This document shows positions 5,985-16,007 of a stretch of DNA of 64,000 bases, one piece after another. Numbering within the stretch: position 1 is the first letter of the stretch; each line of letters opens with the position of its first letter. The position numbers and the translations under genes are program-made. The stretch lies in NCBI RefSeq assembly GCF_044324875.1, contig NZ_CP172185.1. One strand, 5' to 3'. Below the pieces are notes generated by a model. The model did not search any database and was not told the DNA's origin. It saw nothing but the letters and a program-made list of their open reading frames with translations. The stretch comes from Escherichia coli. GTDB taxonomy: Bacteria > Pseudomonadota > Gammaproteobacteria > Enterobacterales > Enterobacteriaceae.

Positions 5985-8255
5985 ATGATGAAAGTATTAA
6001 TTGTTGAAAGCGAGTTTCTCCATCAAGACACCTGGGTCGGTAACGCCGTTGAGCGTCTGGCAGATGCTTTAAGCCAGCAAAATGTTACCGTGATTAAATC
6101 CACCTCCTTTGATGATGGTTTTGCCATTCTCTCTTCAAACGAAGCCATTGACTGCCTGATGTTCAGCTATCAAATGGAACATCCGGACGAACATCAAAAC
6201 GTCAGACAATTGATCGGTAAGCTTCATGAGCGCCAACAAAACGTGCCGGTCTTCCTGTTGGGCGATCGGGAAAAAGCCCTCGCCGCAATGGACCGGGATC
6301 TGCTGGAGCTTGTCGATGAATTCGCCTGGATTCTGGAAGATACCGCCGACTTTATCGCCGGACGCGCCGTTGCCGCGATGACCCGCTACCGCCAGCAACT
6401 GTTGCCGCCACTGTTCAGCGCGCTGATGAAATATAGCGACATCCATGAATATTCCTGGGCAGCGCCAGGCCACCAGGGCGGCGTTGGTTTTACCAAAACA
6501 CCCGCCGGACGTTTCTACCATGACTACTATGGTGAAAATCTGTTCCGCACCGACATGGGCATCGAACGAACTTCCCTCGGTTCTTTGCTTGACCATACTG
6601 GCGCATTTGGCGAAAGCGAAAAATATGCTGCACGCGTATTTGGTGCCGATCGCTCCTGGTCGGTAGTCGTCGGTACTTCCGGCTCTAACCGCACCATCAT
6701 GCAGGCTTGCATGACCGATAACGATATCGTGGTCGTTGACCGTAACTGCCATAAATCCATCGAACAAGGCTTGATGCTGACAGGCGCGAAACCGGTCTAC
6801 ATGGTGCCAAGCCGCAACCGCTATGGCATTATCGGGCCAATCTATCCGCAGGAAATGCAACCTGAAACCTTGCAGAAGAAAATCAGTGAAAGCCCGCTGA
6901 CTAAAGACAAAGCCGGGCAAAAACCGTCTTACTGCGTAGTGACCAACTGTACCTATGACGGCGTGTGTTATAACGCTAAAGAAGCGCAGGATCTGCTGGA
7001 AAAAACCTCCGATCGTCTGCACTTTGACGAAGCCTGGTACGGCTATGCACGTTTCAACCCGATCTATGCCGATCACTATGCCATGCGCGGCGAACCTGGC
7101 GATCACAACGGTCCTACCGTTTTCGCCACCCACTCCACCCACAAACTGCTGAATGCGCTGTCACAGGCCTCTTATATTCATGTACGTGAAGGTCGTGGGG
7201 CGATTAACTTCTCCCGCTTCAACCAGGCCTACATGATGCATGCCACCACCTCCCCGCTGTATGCCATCTGCGCATCCAACGACGTGGCGGTGTCGATGAT
7301 GGACGGCAACAGCGGCCTGTCACTGACGCAGGAAGTGATCGACGAAGCGGTTGATTTCCGTCAGGCGATGGCGCGACTGTATAAAGAGTTCACCGCTGAC
7401 GGTAGCTGGTTCTTCAAACCGTGGAACAAAGAAGTCGTCACCGACCCACAAACCGGCAAAACCTATGACTTTGCTGACGCACCAACCAAACTGCTGACCA
7501 CCGTTCAGGACTGCTGGGTCATGCATCCGGGCGAAAGCTGGCACGGCTTCAAAGATATTCCGGATAACTGGAGTATGCTCGACCCGATTAAAGTCAGCAT
7601 CCTTGCTCCGGGAATGGGTGAAGATGGTGAACTGGAAGAAACCGGCGTTCCAGCGGCGCTGGTCACTGCCTGGCTTGGTCGCCACGGCATTGTGCCTACC
7701 CGCACCACTGACTTCCAAATTATGTTCCTGTTCTCTATGGGCGTAACCCGTGGGAAATGGGGGACTCTGGTTAACACCCTTTGCTCCTTCAAACGCCACT
7801 ATGACGCCAACACACCGCTGGCGCAGGTGATGCCGGAACTTGTTGAACAATATCCTGACACTTACGCGAACATGGGGATTCACGATCTGGGTGACACCAT
7901 GTTTGCCTGGCTGAAAGAAAACAACCCTGGCGCACGGTTGAACGAAGCCTATTCCGGCCTACCGGTGGCGGAAATCACCCCGCGAGAAGCGTACAACGCG
8001 ATTGTCGACAACAATGTCGAACTGGTATCCATTGAAAACCTACCAGGACGCATCGCGGCAAACTCAGTTATCCCGTATCCGCCAGGAATCCCGATGCTGC
8101 TGTCTGGTGAAAACTTCGGCGATAAAAACAGTCCGCAAGTAAGTTATTTACGCTCGCTGCAATCCTGGGACCATCATTTCCCTGGATTTGAACACGAAAC
8201 TGAAGGGACTGAAATTATTGACGGTATTTACCACGTTATGTGTGTGAAAGCGTAA
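5985..8255 (+). CDS. adiA: Biodegradative (acid-inducible) arginine decarboxylase, PLP-dependent
   Basis: 756 aa; N-terminal wing domain MKVLIVESEF..., PLP-lysine context FATHSTHKLLNALSQAS. Start may be the second ATG at 5988. Confidence 0.95.
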   Translation: MMKVLIVESEFLHQDTWVGNAVERLADALSQQNVTVIKSTSFDDGFAILSSNEAIDCLMFSYQMEHPDEHQNVRQLIGKLHERQQNVPVFLLGDREKALAAMDRDLLELVDEFAWILEDTADFIAGRAVAAMTRYRQQLLPPLFSALMKYSDIHEYSWAAPGHQGGVGFTKTPAGRFYHDYYGENLFRTDMGIERTSLGSLLDHTGAFGESEKYAARVFGADRSWSVVVGTSGSNRTIMQACMTDNDIVVVDRNCHKSIEQGLMLTGAKPVYMVPSRNRYGIIGPIYPQEMQPETLQKKISESPLTKDKAGQKPSYCVVTNCTYDGVCYNAKEAQDLLEKTSDRLHFDEAWYGYARFNPIYADHYAMRGEPGDHNGPTVFATHSTHKLLNALSQASYIHVREGRGAINFSRFNQAYMMHATTSPLYAICASNDVAVSMMDGNSGLSLTQEVIDEAVDFRQAMARLYKEFTADGSWFFKPWNKEVVTDPQTGKTYDFADAPTKLLTTVQDCWVMHPGESWHGFKDIPDNWSMLDPIKVSILAPGMGEDGELEETGVPAALVTAWLGRHGIVPTRTTDFQIMFLFSMGVTRGKWGTLVNTLCSFKRHYDANTPLAQVMPELVEQYPDTYANMGIHDLGDTMFAWLKENNPGARLNEAYSGLPVAEITPREAYNAIVDNNVELVSIENLPGRIAANSVIPYPPGIPMLLSGENFGDKNSPQVSYLRSLQSWDHHFPGFEHETEGTEIIDGIYHVMCVKA

Positions 8256-8579: not shown

Positions 8580-9341
8580 ATGAGGATTTGCAGCGACCAA
8601 CCTTGTATTGTTTTATTGACTGAAAAAGATGTCTGGATAAGGGTGAATGGGAAAGAACCTATTAGCCTTAAAGCTAACCATATGGCGTTATTAAATTGTG
8701 AAAATAATATTATCGACGTCTCCTCTCTTAATAACACTTTGGTTGCTCATATTAGTCACGACATCATCAAAGATTACCTCCGGTTTCTGAATAAAGATCT
8801 CTCGCAAATACCAGTATGGCAACGTAGCGCTACGCCCATCCTCACCCTGCCATGCCTGACGCCAGACGTCTTTCGCGTTGCCGCGCAACATAGCATGATG
8901 CCCGCTGAAACTGAGTCAGAAAAGGAACGAACACGTGCATTATTATTCACTGTGCTATCCCGTTTTCTCGACAGTAAAAAATTCCTTTCATTAATGATGT
9001 ATATGTTACGTAATTGTGTAAGTGACAGCGTTTATCAAATTATTGAAAGCGATATCCACAAAGACTGGAATCTTAGTATGGTAGCCAGTTGTTTATGTCT
9101 TAGCCCAAGTCTGTTAAAGAAAAAGCTGAAAAGCGAAAACACCAGTTATAGCCAAATAATCACCACCTGCCGCATGCGTTATGCCGTCAATGAATTAATG
9201 ATGGACGGTAAAAATATCTCTCAGGTATCACAATCCTGCGGCTACAACAGTACGTCGTACTTTATTTCTGTCTTTAAAGACTTCTACGGTATGACGCCTC
9301 TGCATTATGTTAGTCAGCACAGAGAACGCACTGTCGCCTGA
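8580..9341 (+). CDS. adiY: AraC-family regulator of the adi system
   Basis: 253 aa, AT-rich gene, C-terminal AraC HTH; located between adiA and adiC. Confidence 0.9.
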   Translation: MRICSDQPCIVLLTEKDVWIRVNGKEPISLKANHMALLNCENNIIDVSSLNNTLVAHISHDIIKDYLRFLNKDLSQIPVWQRSATPILTLPCLTPDVFRVAAQHSMMPAETESEKERTRALLFTVLSRFLDSKKFLSLMMYMLRNCVSDSVYQIIESDIHKDWNLSMVASCLCLSPSLLKKKLKSENTSYSQIITTCRMRYAVNELMMDGKNISQVSQSCGYNSTSYFISVFKDFYGMTPLHYVSQHRERTVA

Positions 9342-9477: not shown

Positions 9478-10815
9478 ATGTCTTCGGATGCTGATGCTCA
9501 CAAAGTGGGCTTAATCCCCGTCACCCTGATGGTGTCGGGGAATATTATGGGGTCAGGTGTTTTTCTGTTACCTGCAAACCTGGCCTCTACTGGCGGGATT
9601 GCCATTTATGGATGGTTGGTGACGATTATCGGTGCGCTGGGGCTCTCGATGGTATACGCCAAAATGTCGTTCCTCGACCCAAGTCCTGGTGGTTCTTACG
9701 CTTACGCCCGCCGCTGCTTTGGGCCGTTTCTCGGTTATCAAACCAACGTCCTCTACTGGCTGGCCTGCTGGATCGGCAATATCGCCATGGTGGTCATTGG
9801 CGTAGGATATTTAAGTTACTTCTTCCCGATTCTGAAAGATCCACTGGTATTAACCATCACCTGCGTCGTGGTGCTGTGGATCTTCGTCCTGCTGAACATT
9901 GTCGGTCCGAAAATGATCACCCGTGTGCAGGCCGTTGCCACCGTGCTGGCGCTGATCCCCATCGTCGGGATTGCCGTATTTGGCTGGTTCTGGTTCCGTG
10001 GTGAAACCTATATGGCGGCATGGAACGTCAGCGGCCTGGGCACCTTCGGCGCGATTCAAAGTACCCTTAACGTTACGCTGTGGTCGTTCATCGGTGTGGA
10101 AAGTGCCTCCGTTGCCGCAGGTGTGGTGAAAAACCCGAAACGCAACGTCCCTATCGCCACCATTGGTGGGGTATTGATTGCCGCCGTTTGCTATGTGCTC
10201 TCCACCACCGCGATTATGGGGATGATCCCTAATGCCGCACTGCGCGTTTCTGCCTCGCCATTCGGTGATGCCGCACGGATGGCGTTGGGTGACACCGCCG
10301 GGGCCATTGTTTCCTTCTGCGCAGCTGCGGGTTGCTTAGGTTCACTGGGCGGCTGGACGTTGCTGGCGGGTCAAACGGCGAAAGCCGCTGCCGATGACGG
10401 ACTGTTCCCACCGATTTTTGCCCGTGTAAATAAAGCGGGTACGCCAGTGGCAGGGCTGATTATCGTCGGTATTTTGATGACCATCTTCCAGCTCAGTAGC
10501 ATTTCGCCAAACGCGACCAAAGAATTCGGTCTGGTGTCTTCCGTGTCGGTCATCTTTACACTGGTGCCATATCTTTACACCTGTGCGGCATTACTGCTGC
10601 TCGGCCACGGTCACTTTGGTAAAGCACGCCCGGCATACCTGGCAGTTACTACCATTGCCTTCCTCTACTGCATCTGGGCCGTAGTAGGGTCCGGCGCAAA
10701 AGAGGTTATGTGGTCATTTGTCACTCTGATGGTAATCACCGCCATGTATGCGCTGAATTACAACCGGCTGCATAAAAACCCGTATCCCTTAGATGCACCA
10801 ATAAGCAAAGATTAA
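9478..10815 (+). CDS. adiC: Arginine:agmatine antiporter (APC superfamily)
   Basis: 445 aa polytopic membrane protein, N-terminus [36 protein letters not shown] recognised as AdiC. Confidence 0.95.
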
Positions 10816-10839
10816 TTCCCCTTAATCAAGCAAACATAA

Positions 10840-10869
10840 AAGCCAACCTTAAGAACTTAAGGTTGGCTT
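10840..10869 (+). terminator. Perfect palindrome followed by T-rich tract; likely adiC terminator
   Basis: aagccaaccttaag aa cttaaggttggctt followed by aattttgcttt. Confidence 0.55.
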
Positions 10870-10872
10870 AAT
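10856..10872 (+). promoter_or_regulatory. Candidate BasR/PmrA box upstream of eptA
   Basis: CTTAAG-gttgg-CTTAAT, two hexamers with 5-bp spacer, about 47 bp upstream of the eptA ATG; overlaps the terminator palindrome. Confidence 0.45.
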
Positions 10873-10918
10873 TTTGCTTTGCGAGCATATGCGCACTTTG
10901 TTCGATGGAAACACCGTG

Positions 10919-12562
10919 ATGTTGAAGCGCCTACTAAAAAGACCCTCTTTGAATTTACTCGCCTGGCTATTGTTGGCCGCTTTTTATATCTCTATCTGCC
11001 TGAATATTGCCTTTTTTAAACAGGTGTTGCAGGCGCTGCCGCTGGACTCGCTGCATAACGTACTGGTTTTCTTGTCGATGCCGGTCGTCGCCTTCAGCGT
11101 GATTAATATTGTCCTGACACTAAGCTCTTTCTTATGGCTTAATCGACCGCTGGCCTGCCTGTTTATTCTGGTCGGCGCGGCTGCACAATATTTCATAATG
11201 ACTTACGGCATCGTCATCGACCGCTCGATGATTGCCAATATTATTGATACCACTCCGGCAGAAAGTTATGCGTTGATGACGCCGCAAATGTTATTAACGC
11301 TGGGATTCAGCGGCGTGCTTGCTGCGCTGATTGCCTGCTGGATTAAAATCAAACCTGCCACCTCGCACCTGCGCAGTGTTCTTTTCCGTGGAGCCAATAT
11401 TCTGGTGTCTGTACTGCTGATTTTGCTGGTCGCCGCACTGTTTTATAAAGACTACGCCTCATTGTTCCGCAACAACAAAGAGCTGGTGAAGTCCTTAAGC
11501 CCCTCTAACAGCATTGTTGCCAGCTGGTCATGGTACTCCCATCAGCGACTGGCAAATCTGCCGCTGGTGCGAATTGGTGAAGATGCGCACCGCAACCCAT
11601 TAATGCAGAACGAGACACGTAAAAATTTGACCATCCTGATTGTCGGCGAAACCTCGCGGGCGGAGAACTTCTCCCTCAATGGCTATCCGCGTGAAACTAA
11701 CCCGCGGCTGGCAAAAGATAACGTGGTCTATTTCCCTAATACCGCATCTTGCGGCACGGCAACGGCAGTTTCAGTACCGTGCATGTTCTCGGATATGCCG
11801 CGTGAGCACTACAAAGAAGAGCTGGCACAGCACCAGGAAGGCGTGCTGGATATCATTCAGCGAGCGGGCATCAACGTGCTGTGGAATGACAACGATGGCG
11901 GCTGTAAAGGTGCCTGCGACCGCGTGCCTCACCAGAACGTCACCGCGCTGAATCTGCCTGGTCAGTGCATCAACGGCGAATGCTATGACGAAGTGCTGTT
12001 CCACGGGCTGGAAGAGTACATCAATAACCTGCAGGGTGATGGCGTGATTGTCTTACACACCATCGGCAGCCACGGTCCGACCTATTACAACCGCTATCCG
12101 CCGCAGTTCAGGAAATTTACCCCAACCTGCGACACTAACGAGATCCAGACCTGTACCAAAGAGCAACTGGTGAACACTTACGACAACACGCTGGTTTACG
12201 TCGACTATATTGTTGATAAAGCGATTAATCTGCTGAAAGAACATCAGGATAAATTTACCACCAGCCTGGTTTATCTTTCTGACCACGGTGAGTCGTTAGG
12301 TGAAAATGGCATCTATCTGCACGGTCTGCCTTATGCCATCGCCCCGGATAGCCAAAAACAGGTGCCAATGCTGCTGTGGCTGTCGGAGGATTATCAAAAA
12401 CGGTATCAGGTTGACCAGAACTGCCTGCAAAAACAGGCGCAAACGCAACACTATTCACAAGATAATTTATTCTCCACGCTATTGGGATTAACTGGCGTTG
12501 AGACGAAGTATTACCAGGCTGCGGATGATATTCTGCAAACTTGCAGGAGAGTGAGTGAATGA
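10919..12562 (+). CDS. eptA: Lipid A phosphoethanolamine transferase
   Basis: 547 aa; N-terminal TM helices plus sulfatase-like periplasmic domain; start chosen at ATG 10919 ([12 protein letters not shown]...), ORF track begins upstream at an alternative codon. Stop overlaps basR start. Confidence 0.9.
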
Positions 12563-13227
12563 AAATTCTGATTGTTGAAGACGATACGCTGTTATTGCAG
12601 GGATTGATTCTAGCGGCACAAACCGAAGGCTACGCGTGCGATGGCGTGACAACCGCGCGGATGGCGGAACAAAGCCTTGAGGCCGGTCATTACAGCCTGG
12701 TGGTACTGGATTTAGGGTTACCCGACGAAGATGGACTGCATTTTCTCGCCCGTATCCGGCAGAAAAAATACACCCTGCCGGTACTGATCCTCACCGCTCG
12801 CGATACGCTGACCGACAAAATCGCCGGGCTGGATGTCGGTGCCGATGACTATCTGGTGAAGCCTTTTGCGCTGGAAGAGTTACACGCCCGTATCCGCGCC
12901 CTGCTACGACGCCATAATAATCAGGGCGAAAGTGAGCTGATTGTTGGCAATCTGACGCTGAATATGGGTCGCCGTCAGGTATGGATGGGCGGTGAAGAGT
13001 TGATTCTGACGCCCAAAGAATATGCTCTGCTGTCACGGTTAATGCTCAAAGCAGGCAGTCCGGTGCATCGGGAAATTCTCTACAACGACATCTATAACTG
13101 GGACAATGAACCCTCGACCAACACCCTGGAAGTGCATATCCACAATCTGCGCGACAAAGTGGGCAAAGCCCGTATCCGCACCGTGCGCGGCTTTGGCTAT
13201 ATGCTGGTCGCGAATGAGGAAAACTAA
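12559..13227 (+). CDS. basR: Two-component response regulator (OmpR family)
   Basis: 222 aa; receiver domain MKILIVEDD...DLGLPDEDG and winged-helix C-terminus. Confidence 0.95.
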
Positions 13228-13236
13228 TTGAATCTG

Positions 13237-14328
13237 ATGCGTTTTCTGCGCCGACCAATATCGCTGCGCCAACGGCTGATATTGACCATTGGGGCCATTT
13301 TGTTGGTGTTTGAGCTGATCAGCGTCTTCTGGCTATGGCATGAAAGTACCGAGCAGATTCAGCTGTTTGAGCAGGCGCTACGCGACAATCGCAACAACGA
13401 TCGCCACATCATGCGTGAGATCCGCGAGGCGGTCGCCAGCCTGATCGTCCCCGGCGTCTTTATGGTCAGCCTGACGCTATTTATCTGCTATCAGGCGGTA
13501 CGCCGCATCACCCGGCCGCTGGCGGAGCTGCAAAAAGAGCTGGAAGCGCGCACCGCCGACAACTTAACGCCTATTGCCATTCACAGCGCCACCCTCGAAA
13601 TCGAAGCGGTGGTTTCGGCGTTGAACGATCTGGTCAGTCGCCTGACCAGCACGCTGGATAACGAAAGGTTGTTTACCGCTGACGTCGCGCACGAACTGCG
13701 AACGCCACTGGCGGGGGTGCGTTTGCATCTGGAACTGCTGGCGAAAACGCATCACATTGATGTAGCACCGTTAGTGGCTCGACTTGATCAGATGATGGAG
13801 AGTGTCTCCCAGCTGCTGCAACTGGCGCGTGCCGGACAGTCATTTTCTTCCGGGAATTATCAACATGTAAAACTGCTGGAAGATGTCATTCTCCCCTCGT
13901 ATGACGAACTCAGTACCATGCTCGACCAGCGACAGCAAACCCTGCTATTGCCAGAGAGCGCCGCCGACATCACCGTTCAGGGTGATGCAACCCTGCTGCG
14001 GATGTTATTGCGAAACCTGGTAGAAAACGCCCATCGTTACAGCCCGCAAGGCAGCAACATTATGATTAAGCTGCAAGAAGATGGCGGAGCGGTCATGGCC
14101 GTTGAAGATGAAGGACCGGGTATTGATGAGAGTAAATGCGGGGAGTTGAGTAAAGCGTTTGTACGTATGGACAGCCGTTATGGCGGGATTGGTCTGGGGT
14201 TAAGTATTGTCAGCCGCATTACACAGTTGCATCACGGGCAGTTTTTCCTGCAAAACCGGCAAGAGACTTCCGGCACGCGGGCCTGGGTACGGCTGAAGAA
14301 AGATCAGTACGTGGCAAACCAGATATAA
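13237..14328 (+). CDS. basS: Sensor histidine kinase
   Basis: H-box AHELRTPL and ATPase domain motifs; start set at ATG 13237 (MRFLRRP...); ORF track starts at TTG 13228. Confidence 0.9.
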   Translation: MRFLRRPISLRQRLILTIGAILLVFELISVFWLWHESTEQIQLFEQALRDNRNNDRHIMREIREAVASLIVPGVFMVSLTLFICYQAVRRITRPLAELQKELEARTADNLTPIAIHSATLEIEAVVSALNDLVSRLTSTLDNERLFTADVAHELRTPLAGVRLHLELLAKTHHIDVAPLVARLDQMMESVSQLLQLARAGQSFSSGNYQHVKLLEDVILPSYDELSTMLDQRQQTLLLPESAADITVQGDATLLRMLLRNLVENAHRYSPQGSNIMIKLQEDGGAVMAVEDEGPGIDESKCGELSKAFVRMDSRYGGIGLGLSIVSRITQLHHGQFFLQNRQETSGTRAWVRLKKDQYVANQI

Positions 14329-14393
14329 AGAAAGCTGCTGACCACCAGCACGCTGAACACGGTAGTTAAACTTTCATAAACACGGTTTTTCAT
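14304..14393 (-). CDS. pmrR: Small membrane protein PmrR (29 aa), overlapping the 3' end of basS on the opposite strand
   Basis: Minus-strand ATG at 14393 with GGAGGA RBS 8 bp upstream; translation MKNRVYESLTTVFSVLVVSSFLYIWFATY; absent from the ORF track because of its size. Confidence 0.75.
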   Translation of the reverse strand: MKNRVYESLTTVFSVLVVSSFLYIWFATY

Positions 14394-14437
14394 TGCACTC
14401 TCCTCCGTTAACCTGGAGGAGAGTATGCGCGTCAGAG

Positions 14438-14453
14438 ATTAAGTGAACCTTAA
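14438..14453 (-). promoter_or_regulatory. Candidate BasR/PmrA box for pmrR
   Basis: Minus-strand CTTAAG-gttca-CTTAAT about 45 bp upstream of the pmrR start. Confidence 0.45.
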
Positions 14454-14504
14454 GACTTCAATTGGCCTGATAAGACAGCGTCACATCAGGCCATCCGTTT
14501 CAGC

Positions 14505-16007
14505 TTATTCATCAATTCGCGGATGTTGCTGCACCAGGCGAGTACGTTTCGCCTGCAAATCGGCAATCTCGTGGTCAATATCATCGATTTTCTGCTCGAT
14601 ATTATCGTAATGCTCGACGAGAATTTCCTTCGCTTCCTGTATATCTGACGCCGCCGGTGTCGCACCTTTCAACGGACGATTCGCCGTCTCTTTCATGGTT
14701 ACGCCGGTGATTAAACCAACCACCGCCACTACCATCAGGTAATAGGCAGGCATCATCAAATTCTGCGAGCTTTCGACCAGCCAGGCCGCCAGCGTTGGCG
14801 TCAGACCGGCAACCAGCACCGAAATATTAAATGCCGCCGCCAGCGCGCTGTAACGGATATGCGTCGGGAACATCGCTGGCAAGGTAGAGGCCATAACGCC
14901 CGTAAAGCAGTTAAGGATCACCGCCAGCATCAGTAACCCGGCAAAAATCAGGCCGATGACGTTACTGTTAATCAGAATAAACGCCGGGATCGCCAACACA
15001 AACAGTGCAACACTACCAAGTAGCACAAACGGACGACGGCCAAAACGGTCACTCAGCAAGCCCATCACCGGCTGGACAAACAGCATACCGATCATAATGG
15101 CGATAATAATCAGCACCCCGTGGTCTTCGGAGTAATGCAGGTTATGCGACAAATAACTCGGCATATAGGTCAGCAACATGTAGTAAGTCACGTTGGTGGC
15201 AATTACCAGACCAATACATGTCAACAGGCTGCGCCAGTATTTAGTGGCAATCTCTTTAAACGAGACTTTCGGGCCATCCTGCAAACCTTCGCGGTCGCCC
15301 TGCTCCAGTTTATCAACATGCTGCTGGAACGCCGGAGTCTCTTCCAGCGCATGGCGCAGGTAAAGCCCGATAATCCCTAACGGCAGAGCAATAAAGAACG
15401 GAATACGCCAGCCCCAGTCGAGGAAGTTCGCTTCGCCGACAATGGTCGAAATTAACACCACCACGCCCGCACCCAGCACAAACCCGGCAATAGAACCGAA
15501 GTCCAGCCAGCTGCCCATAAATCCACGTTTACGGTCAGGGGAGTATTCCGCAACAAATATCGACGCCCCGGTATATTCACCGCCGACCGAGAAACCTTGT
15601 GCCATCTTACAGATCAACAGCAGAATCGGTGCCCAAATACCAATCGTGTCGTAGGACGGTATTAAGCCAATACAGAAGGTACTGATCGACATAATCACAA
15701 TAGTGATAGCGAGGATCTTCTGGCGACCATATTTATCGCCCAACATACCAAAGAAGAGTCCACCAAGCGGTCGAATCAGAAAGGGAACGGAGAAAGTGGC
15801 AAGTGCAGCAACCATCTGCACGCTGGGGTCAGCCCCCGGGAAAAAAACTTTACCTAATGCGTAAGCAACAAAACCATAAACACCAAAATCGAACCATTCC
15901 ATTGCATTACCCAGTGATGCTGCGGTAATGGCTTTACGCAATTTACCGTCATCAATAATGGTGACATCACGAAGGGTAATCGGTTTTACTTTTTTCCTTT
16001 TCAGCAT
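14505..16007 (-). CDS. proP: Proline/glycine betaine:H+ symporter (MFS) with C-terminal coiled coil
   Basis: 500 aa; MFS transporter with coiled-coil tail (…DIDHEIADLQAKRTRLVQQ…); start set at MLKRKKVKPITL. Confidence 0.95.
   Translation of the reverse strand: MLKRKKVKPITLRDVTIIDDGKLRKAITAASLGNAMEWFDFGVYGFVAYALGKVFFPGADPSVQMVAALATFSVPFLIRPLGGLFFGMLGDKYGRQKILAITIVIMSISTFCIGLIPSYDTIGIWAPILLLICKMAQGFSVGGEYTGASIFVAEYSPDRKRGFMGSWLDFGSIAGFVLGAGVVVLISTIVGEANFLDWGWRIPFFIALPLGIIGLYLRHALEETPAFQQHVDKLEQGDREGLQDGPKVSFKEIATKYWRSLLTCIGLVIATNVTYYMLLTYMPSYLSHNLHYSEDHGVLIIIAIMIGMLFVQPVMGLLSDRFGRRPFVLLGSVALFVLAIPAFILINSNVIGLIFAGLLMLAVILNCFTGVMASTLPAMFPTHIRYSALAAAFNISVLVAGLTPTLAAWLVESSQNLMMPAYYLMVVAVVGLITGVTMKETANRPLKGATPAASDIQEAKEILVEHYDNIEQKIDDIDHEIADLQAKRTRLVQQHPRIDE

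Follow-up and report, generated by a model that had tools for sequence, protein, structure and literature searches.

Probable Transcription Unit Boundary Between adiC and eptA

In Escherichia coli, the arginine:agmatine antiporter gene adiC is followed on the same strand by the phosphoethanolamine transferase gene eptA, and a perfect palindrome with a T-rich tract lies in the short region between them. The question raised by this junction is whether one and the same sequence ends the transcripts of the upstream gene and carries the binding site of the activator of the downstream gene, as was supposed in the initial annotation of this DNA. The activator in question is BasR, the E. coli counterpart of PmrA.

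The analyzed window is a stretch of E. coli DNA 64 kb in length, and all positions refer to it. The adiC protein encoded in the window is 100% identical to that of K-12 (b4115). The adiC–eptA intergenic region of K-12 (103 bp) differs from the window by one base, which lies outside the palindrome; the window position p corresponds to the K-12 coordinate 4335590 + (10919 − p) on the minus strand. The coordinates of the genes and other features are collected in Table 1. The stop codon of eptA and the start codon of basR overlap by 4 nt (ATGA, 12559–12562), which suggests translational coupling inside the eptA-basRS operon. In the 5′ part of the eptA CDS (10964–10979, plus strand), a terminator scan indicated a short terminator-like hairpin, TGGCTATTGTTGGCCG, followed by CTTTTTATAT.

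Table 1. Features of the adiC–eptA junction and of its surroundings in the window.
Feature	Position	Strand	Remarks
adiA	5985–8255	+	ORF list; K-12 MG1655 annotation
adiY	8580–9341	+	ORF list; K-12 MG1655 annotation
adiC CDS (arginine:agmatine antiporter)	9478–10815	+	ORF list; stop codon TAA at 10813–10815
A-rich 5′ strand of the outer helix, AAGCAAA	10828–10834	+	pairs with 10873–10879; MFE and centroid folds, inverted repeat
Left arm of the palindrome, AAGCCAACCTTAAG	10840–10853	+	5′ strand of the predicted adiC terminator stem
Third TTAA hexamer	10848–10853	−	core 10849–10852; candidate inverted PmrA half-site
PmrA/BasR box, CTTAAG-GTTGG-CTTAAT (CTTAAGGTTGGCTTAAT)	10856–10872	+	half-sites 10856–10861 and 10867–10872; exact consensus
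Right arm of the palindrome, CTTAAGGTTGGCTT	10856–10869	+	3′ strand of the stem
T-rich tract, TTAATTTTGCTTT	10868–10880	+	putative U-tract where adiC transcripts would be released; also separates the box from −10
Candidate −10 hexamer, GAGCAT (conserved nAnnAT)	10883–10888	+	10 bp past the box; inferred position
Predicted eptA transcription start, ~10895	10893–10897	+	inferred from the −10 position
eptA CDS (phosphoethanolamine transferase)	10919–12562	+	ATG at 10919; ORF list, K-12 MG1655 annotation
basR	12559–13227	+	ORF list; K-12 MG1655 annotation
basS	ends at 14328	+	ORF list; K-12 MG1655 annotation
pmrR ORF	14304–14393	−	25-nt overlap with the 3′ end of basS
−10 of pmrR, CATACT	14427–14422	−	10 bp past the box
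PmrA box of pmrR, CTTAAGGTTCACTTAAT	14454–14438	−	second exact box in the window
REP-like hairpin of proP	14464–14492	−	after the proP stop codon (14505–14507), 9 nt before the box
proP		−	convergent with the eptA-side genes; ORF list; K-12 MG1655 annotation

Structure and Conservation of the Palindrome

The palindrome occupies positions 10840–10869 and reads AAGCCAACCTTAAG-AA-CTTAAGGTTGGCTT, followed by AATTTTGCTTTG. Its left end lies 24 nt past the adiC stop codon, and its right end, 50 nt ahead of the eptA start codon. The inverted-repeat search indicated two 14-nt arms that are 100% complementary and 2 nt apart. Among the perfect close inverted repeats of the 64-kb window, it is the longest and the sole one with 14-nt arms; about 0.003 such repeats would be expected there by chance. 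Thus, the 30-bp perfect palindrome with a T-rich tract that had been described in the initial annotation was confirmed both by direct reading of the sequence and by the inverted-repeat search.

In the predicted fold of the RNA covering positions 10816–10885, a 13-bp stem closes a 4-nt loop, and an outer 7-bp helix is added (10828–10834 with 10873–10879). The energy of this fold is −23.8 kcal/mol, versus −9.6 ± 2.7 kcal/mol for shuffled sequences (z = −5.35), and none of the 200 shuffles was as good. The energy of the hairpin ranges from −17.8 to −23.8 kcal/mol. Eight A–U and five G–C pairs make up the stem. The 47 nt between positions 10836 and 10882 are identical in 5381 of the 5402 complete E. 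coli genomes, and over the surrounding 301 bp, most E. coli genomes are 95–99% identical to the window.

The PmrA Box and the eptA Promoter

PmrA binds two XTTAAY/YTTAAK hexamers 5 nt apart (PMC10570014), and its DNA-binding domains sit head-to-tail on the half-sites (PMC4660055). A search for YTTAAK-N5-YTTAAK revealed two matches in the 64-kb window, with 0.08 expected: 10856–10872 on the plus strand and 14438–14454 on the minus strand. The first of them consists of the right arm of the palindrome and the next three nucleotides. It ends 47 bp before the annotated eptA ATG (10919); the PmrA-like direct repeat, which had been noted about 47 bp upstream of eptA, is an exact consensus, and its distance was given correctly.

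To follow this site across species, 57 related eptA loci were retrieved, and 38 distinct promoters were placed in a gapless alignment. The columns TTAA (10857–10860), GTT (10862–10864), and CTTAA (10867–10871) are invariant in all 38 promoters; the flanks and the rest of the spacer vary. Ten bp past the box, the sequence nAnnAT is found in every species: GAGCAT in E. coli, CACGAT in Salmonella, GAGGAT in Citrobacter, and CACTAT or CAGCAT in Klebsiella and Kluyvera. The same offset separates the box from NAnACT in the pmrR promoters of about 50 species. The sigma-70 consensus scan detected no −35/−10 promoter in the adiC–eptA intergenic region, as expected for an activator-dependent promoter; at the promoters of pbgP, ugd, and pmrCAB, the pmra-box replaces the −35 element (PMC10570014).

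The eptA gene is a documented BasR target (PMC8151780, PMC10570014, PMC9396075), and constitutive basS/basR alleles raise the expression of an eptA-lacZ fusion 73- to 180-fold (PMC8151780). With the hexamers, the offset of the −10 element, the BasR-dependent downstream gene, and the conservation among orthologues all in agreement, the assignment of 10856–10872 as the putative BasR (PmrA) site of the eptA promoter is solid, and the BasR half of the initial annotation holds. BasR is predicted to occupy this site in the present strain. Judging from the −10 position, transcription of eptA would start near 10895; the box would then span about −39 to −23, and the palindrome, about −55 to −26.

In the literature searched, which did not extend to the key primary papers, no mapped eptA start, BasR/PmrA footprint at this site, or adiC 3′ end was found. 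A PmrA box has presumably already been described for E. coli eptA and for Salmonella pmrC. Footprints of BasR/PmrA are reportedly to be found in the papers of Wosten & Groisman (1999) and Ogasawara (2012).

Another pair of TTAA hexamers can be noted at 10811–10826. It consists of ATTAAT, which lies over the adiC stop codon, and CTTAAT (10821–10826), 10 bp apart, and resembles a PmrA box with a 4-bp spacer. Its conservation seems to be confined to Escherichia.

The Hairpin as a Probable Terminator of adiC

As in an intrinsic terminator, a stable stem-loop lies on the coding strand soon after the stop codon of adiC. The terminator scan flagged the palindrome on both strands and revealed no other hairpin between adiC and eptA. 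The quality of the U-tract depends on where the stem is considered to end. The tract UUAAUUUUGCUUU, which follows the pair G10842–C10867, has six U among its first eight nucleotides; if the terminal A–U pairs are counted as part of the stem, there are four of eight. In addition, the tract is interrupted by AA. The d'Aubenton-Carafa-type score splits in the same manner: it is +8.8 for a stem closed at the G–C pair and −12.5 when the two terminal A–U pairs are taken as stem. Given the AU-rich stem, the U-tract, and the split score, the hairpin would be a moderate terminator rather than a textbook one.

When stem pairing was compared across species, 74% of the cells were paired, versus 20–53% in slid controls and 72.6% in shuffles, and two pairs showed double changes. 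The mismatch strand test gave 12 mismatches of the G-U type versus nine of the A-C type. Formal covariation is weak since there is little variation, and this can be explained by the right arm being frozen by the BasR box. Compensated changes do occur: CTTAAG is changed to CTTAAT opposite a C-to-A substitution in the left arm in L013, L015, and L053, and GGTTGTC pairs with GACAACC in L025.

The searchable supplement text of 3′-end and full-length transcript studies (PMC7815308, PMC6061677, PMC4161252, PMC6131387) contains no adiC or eptA entries. The sequence of the palindrome, the fusion of the box with a hairpin, and the third TTAA described below were likewise not found in the literature searched, with the key primary papers lying outside its reach.

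Apparently, the palindrome is likely to fold into a terminator hairpin of adiC. The adiC terminator postulated in the initial annotation is plausible: it is supported by a stable hairpin that is the sole one in the intergenic region and by a distribution complementary to that of other hairpins, while the interrupted U-tract and the weak covariation speak against it.

Distribution of the Palindrome in Related Species

Only Escherichia, Salmonella, and most Citrobacter have adiC upstream of eptA (27 loci). In these loci, the stability of the palindrome is inversely related to that of the other upstream hairpins (Spearman −0.75, phylogeny ignored). Escherichia and C. amalonaticus have intergenic regions of 98–105 nt with the palindrome alone, whose energy is −13.5 to −20 kcal/mol. 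In Salmonella and part of the C. freundii complex, the palindrome is degenerate (−1.6 to −3.6 kcal/mol) and is always accompanied by a REP-like GC-rich hairpin (−12.7 to −28.9 kcal/mol). A junction with neither the palindrome nor another hairpin was found in 0 of the 27 loci, and the weakest "best hairpin" has an energy of −12.7 kcal/mol.

The REP-like hairpins (e.g., GGCCGGATAGCGCAGGTTATCCGGTC, or GCCCGATG...CATCGGGC) lie between the adiC stop codon and the palindrome, which is often degenerate there. They are present in L007 and L008 (Salmonella) and in L011–L015, L017, L019, and L052–L054 (Citrobacter). A T-rich tail (5–6 T in eight nucleotides) follows the palindrome in 25 of 25 sequences of the Escherichia/Citrobacter/Salmonella clade, and an A-rich run is found in 13 of 13 Klebsiella-type sequences; this contrast is a single phylogenetic split, and the cross-species correlations rest on few independent lineages.

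In three loci of C. amalonaticus and C. gillenii (L006, L009, and L018), the arms of the palindrome, located about 80–45 nt upstream of eptA, are 16–17 bp in length. As a result, a complete second PmrA-box consensus (e.g., CTTAATGTTGGCTTAAT) appears on the minus strand, directed towards adiC. A minus-strand PmrA promoter reading into adiC was also considered for E. coli and rejected: some Citrobacter have the full inverted box, but E. coli has CTTTTA as the outer hexamer, with no convincing −10 element after it.

Several peculiar loci were encountered among those retrieved. Citrobacter koseri NCTC10786 (L048) lacks the adi and mel genes, and its eptA promoter is directly preceded by fumB. The eptA gene of this locus is apparently frameshifted, as its ORF stops after 153 aa and the tblastn match resumes at residue 131; it is either a pseudogene or the result of a sequencing error. 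A contig labelled "Chryseobacterium sp. 18061" bears a typical enterobacterial locus of the ybhK-eptA type, and two short contigs labelled as Comamonadaceae (250 bp) and Methylobacterium frigidaeris (230 bp) are 99–100% identical to E. coli eptA. The assemblies of L025, L060, and L061 look mislabelled or contaminated.

The Left Arm and the Third TTAA

The left TTAA of the palindrome (10849–10852) is invariant in all 38 eptA promoters, and the core of the palindrome is TTAA-N4-TTAA. Read on the minus strand, the left hexamer agrees with YTTAAK in 32 of the 38 promoters; read on the plus strand, it does so in 16. This TTAA is retained in Klebsiella, Kluyvera, Raoultella, and Enterobacter, where a ybhK-like gene with a GC-rich hairpin of its own lies upstream in the same orientation; it is also retained beside fumB in C. 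koseri and beside a yjdF-like neighbour in Intestinirhabdus. The residual palindrome of the Klebsiella type has 6–7 AU-rich pairs and no U-tract, and termination by such a stem is impossible. Since the inner palindrome persists next to genes other than adiC and behind a separate GC-rich hairpin, the left arm does not exist solely for the adiC terminator. The conservation of the inner left arm in promoters where it is useless as a terminator, both of the Klebsiella type and in Salmonella (−1.6 kcal/mol), points to a constraint other than termination.

This constraint is not shared by the PmrA promoters in general. Neither an upstream TTAA nor a palindrome was found at the pmrR box in about 50 species, and neither is present at the E. 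coli arnB box, as printed in PMC10729948, which rules out the left TTAA as a general trait of these promoters. The TTAA-N4-TTAA core is therefore peculiar to the eptA promoter, and it antedates the adiC junction.

These observations bring forward an explanation in which the palindrome belongs to the promoter alone. The left arm would then be a third, inverted PmrA half-site or an operator of another dimeric protein, the hairpin would be a by-product, and adiC transcripts would end by the action of Rho or run into eptA. Besides the invariance of the left TTAA, its better fit on the minus strand, and its absence at pmrR and arnB, this agrees with the C-to-A substitution in Salmonella and the C. 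freundii group, which destroys the hairpin and at the same time yields CTTAAT, an allowed variant, on the minus strand. The linker of PmrA is flexible and could let the DNA-binding domain bind in either orientation (PMC4660055). However, the 8-bp offset of the left TTAA is at odds with the 11-bp head-to-tail geometry of the PmrA dimer. Three features are left unexplained by a promoter element: the extension of the arms through the free N5 spacer (GCCAAC with GTTGGC), the clade-limited T-tract accompanying this extension, and the inverse relation with other hairpins. Moreover, selection for the hairpin likewise predicts an invariant left TTAA because its partner, the TTAA of half-site 1, is invariant itself. 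We consider it unlikely that the palindrome serves the promoter alone.

A DNA-level role of the left arm as a conserved inverted third PmrA-type half-site, or as an operator of another dimeric protein, found throughout Enterobacteriaceae at the autoregulated eptA-basRS promoter only, is rated as a minority possibility due to the same offset, and we put it forward tentatively. If it is true, the third half-site might set the gain of BasSR positive feedback, e.g., by non-productive head-to-head binding that competes with the activating head-to-tail mode. In this case, the old core would later have been lengthened in Escherichia to a hairpin with a second role as the adiC terminator.

Other Explanations of the Palindrome

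The symmetry of the palindrome allows for the assumption that it is a bidirectional terminator or insulator, acting mainly against antisense or spurious transcription from eptA towards adiC in addition to adiC transcription. The minus strand indeed reads as terminator-like, with the tail TTATGTTTGC and a score slightly above that of the plus strand; this can be explained by the symmetric palindrome together with the A-rich 5′ flank. However, such symmetry is automatic in any perfect palindrome, and no convergent gene or promoter-like site is aimed into the region from the eptA side, which makes this assumption quite improbable.

Even less probable is a cruciform switch, in which the AT-centred palindrome would be extruded under negative supercoiling, removing the duplex BasR box and coupling eptA to DNA topology. 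The anatomy is suitable for it (perfect 14-bp arms, a 2-nt centre, and an AT-rich middle), but many species keep a core of 6 to 10 bp, which is too short to extrude.

The idea of a REP/BIME-like remnant or copy located beside the box by chance, suggested by the REP-like hairpins in the same intergenic region of Salmonella and Citrobacter, can practically be dismissed: elements of this type are known by many copies and a GC-rich consensus, but the E. coli palindrome is single-copy (a median of one place per genome in 5402–5412 genomes), AT-rich in its centre, includes the BasR box as its right arm, and matches no Rfam family even at permissive thresholds (the best hit has 22 bits versus a gathering score of 50).

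Proposed Mechanism and Its Evolution

We are inclined to accept, as the rather probable reading, that the palindrome has a dual use: the right arm would be the box bound by phosphorylated BasR (BasR-P), and both arms would form the terminator stem in adiC transcripts. On the DNA, a dimer of BasR-P would bind the two direct CTTAAK hexamers (10856–10872) head-to-tail. It would stand in for the missing −35 element and recruit sigma-70 RNA polymerase to the weak −10 element (10883–10888), and transcription of eptA-basRS would begin near the start predicted above. In adiC transcripts, the whole palindrome would be copied and would form the 13-bp stem with the 4-nt loop (10840–10869). Together with UUAAUUUUGCUUU, this stem may act as a moderately strong intrinsic terminator, at which polymerase would be freed at about 10873–10880, i.e., at −20 to −15 of the eptA promoter. 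Read-through would then be limited, and eptA-basRS would stay under BasSR control during heavy adi transcription.

The insulation of eptA from adi transcription, which was also supposed in the initial annotation, is acceptable with a reservation. The hairpin can block read-through into eptA, but it cannot prevent promoter occlusion during heavy adiC transcription: a polymerase finishing adiC would cross the whole BasR box before its predicted release within the eptA promoter. PmrB is a sensor of low pH, and anaerobic acid conditions induce the adi genes (PMC8147483). Since both systems are acid-responsive, interference between adiC and eptA could matter physiologically.

The evolution of the junction probably proceeded from the core to its extension with the T-tract and then to decay. 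The older TTAA-N4-TTAA core of the eptA promoter would have been lengthened to arms of 12–17 bp in the Escherichia/Citrobacter/Salmonella clade, where the T-tract would also have been added. Lineages that gained a REP-like hairpin after adiC would have let the extension decay.

Significance of the Junction

The eptA gene confers resistance to colistin, its operon confers resistance to polymyxin, and adiC is an acid-resistance gene. The exact bases of the eptA promoter, along with adi transcription that would cross this promoter and end inside it, are important for the design of reporter fusions, for reading promoter mutations in resistant isolates, and for the mutual interference of the two acid-responsive systems. 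The third TTAA, which is specific to eptA and conserved family-wide, is a candidate for an unrecognised regulatory contact.

The components of the junction, a class II promoter with a PmrA box and an intrinsic terminator, are of well-known kinds. The junction itself is compact but fairly ordinary, an example of genome compaction in which a probable terminator and an activator-dependent promoter would have a sequence in common.

Comparison with Known Systems

The promoters of pbgP/arnB, ugd, and Salmonella pmrCAB, where pmrC is the orthologue of E. coli eptA, are built likewise: two YTTAAK hexamers are 11 bp apart, the −35 element is replaced, and the −10 element is weak. Unlike other promoters with a PmrA box, that of eptA has an additional invariant TTAA 8 bp upstream, which is palindromic with half-site 1. 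A further difference is that, in Escherichia, the eptA box doubles as the 3′ strand of a 13-bp RNA stem predicted to end the upstream gene.

With canonical intrinsic terminators and with bidirectional terminators of the A-tract–U-tract type, the palindrome shares a stem-loop 24 nt past a stop codon, a U-rich run, and an A-rich flank that can pair with it. In contrast to canonical intrinsic terminators, the stem of this putative terminator is AU-rich (five G–C among 13 pairs), its U-tract is broken by AA, and its 3′ stem half and tail double as an activator site and a promoter spacer.

Promoters with a Pho box, which are activated by PhoB of the OmpR/PhoB family, have a direct-repeat activator site about 10 bp upstream of −10 that substitutes for −35, with contact to region 4 of sigma. 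The eptA box resembles the Pho box in being a direct repeat about 10 bp before −10 (PMC10570014, discussion); the regulator and the recognition sequence differ.

The closest counterpart is found in the same window, at the proP/pmrR junction (14422–14492, minus strand). The PmrA box at 14438–14454 drives the small gene pmrR, and this box and its −10 element are conserved in about 50 related loci. The box of eptA, CTTAAGGTTnnCTTAAT, is almost identical to it. As at the adiC–eptA junction, a co-oriented upstream gene is followed by a hairpin, a PmrA box, and a −10 element 10 bp further on. However, the hairpin and the box of the proP/pmrR junction are separate, with 9 nt between them, whereas between adiC and eptA they are fused in one palindrome.
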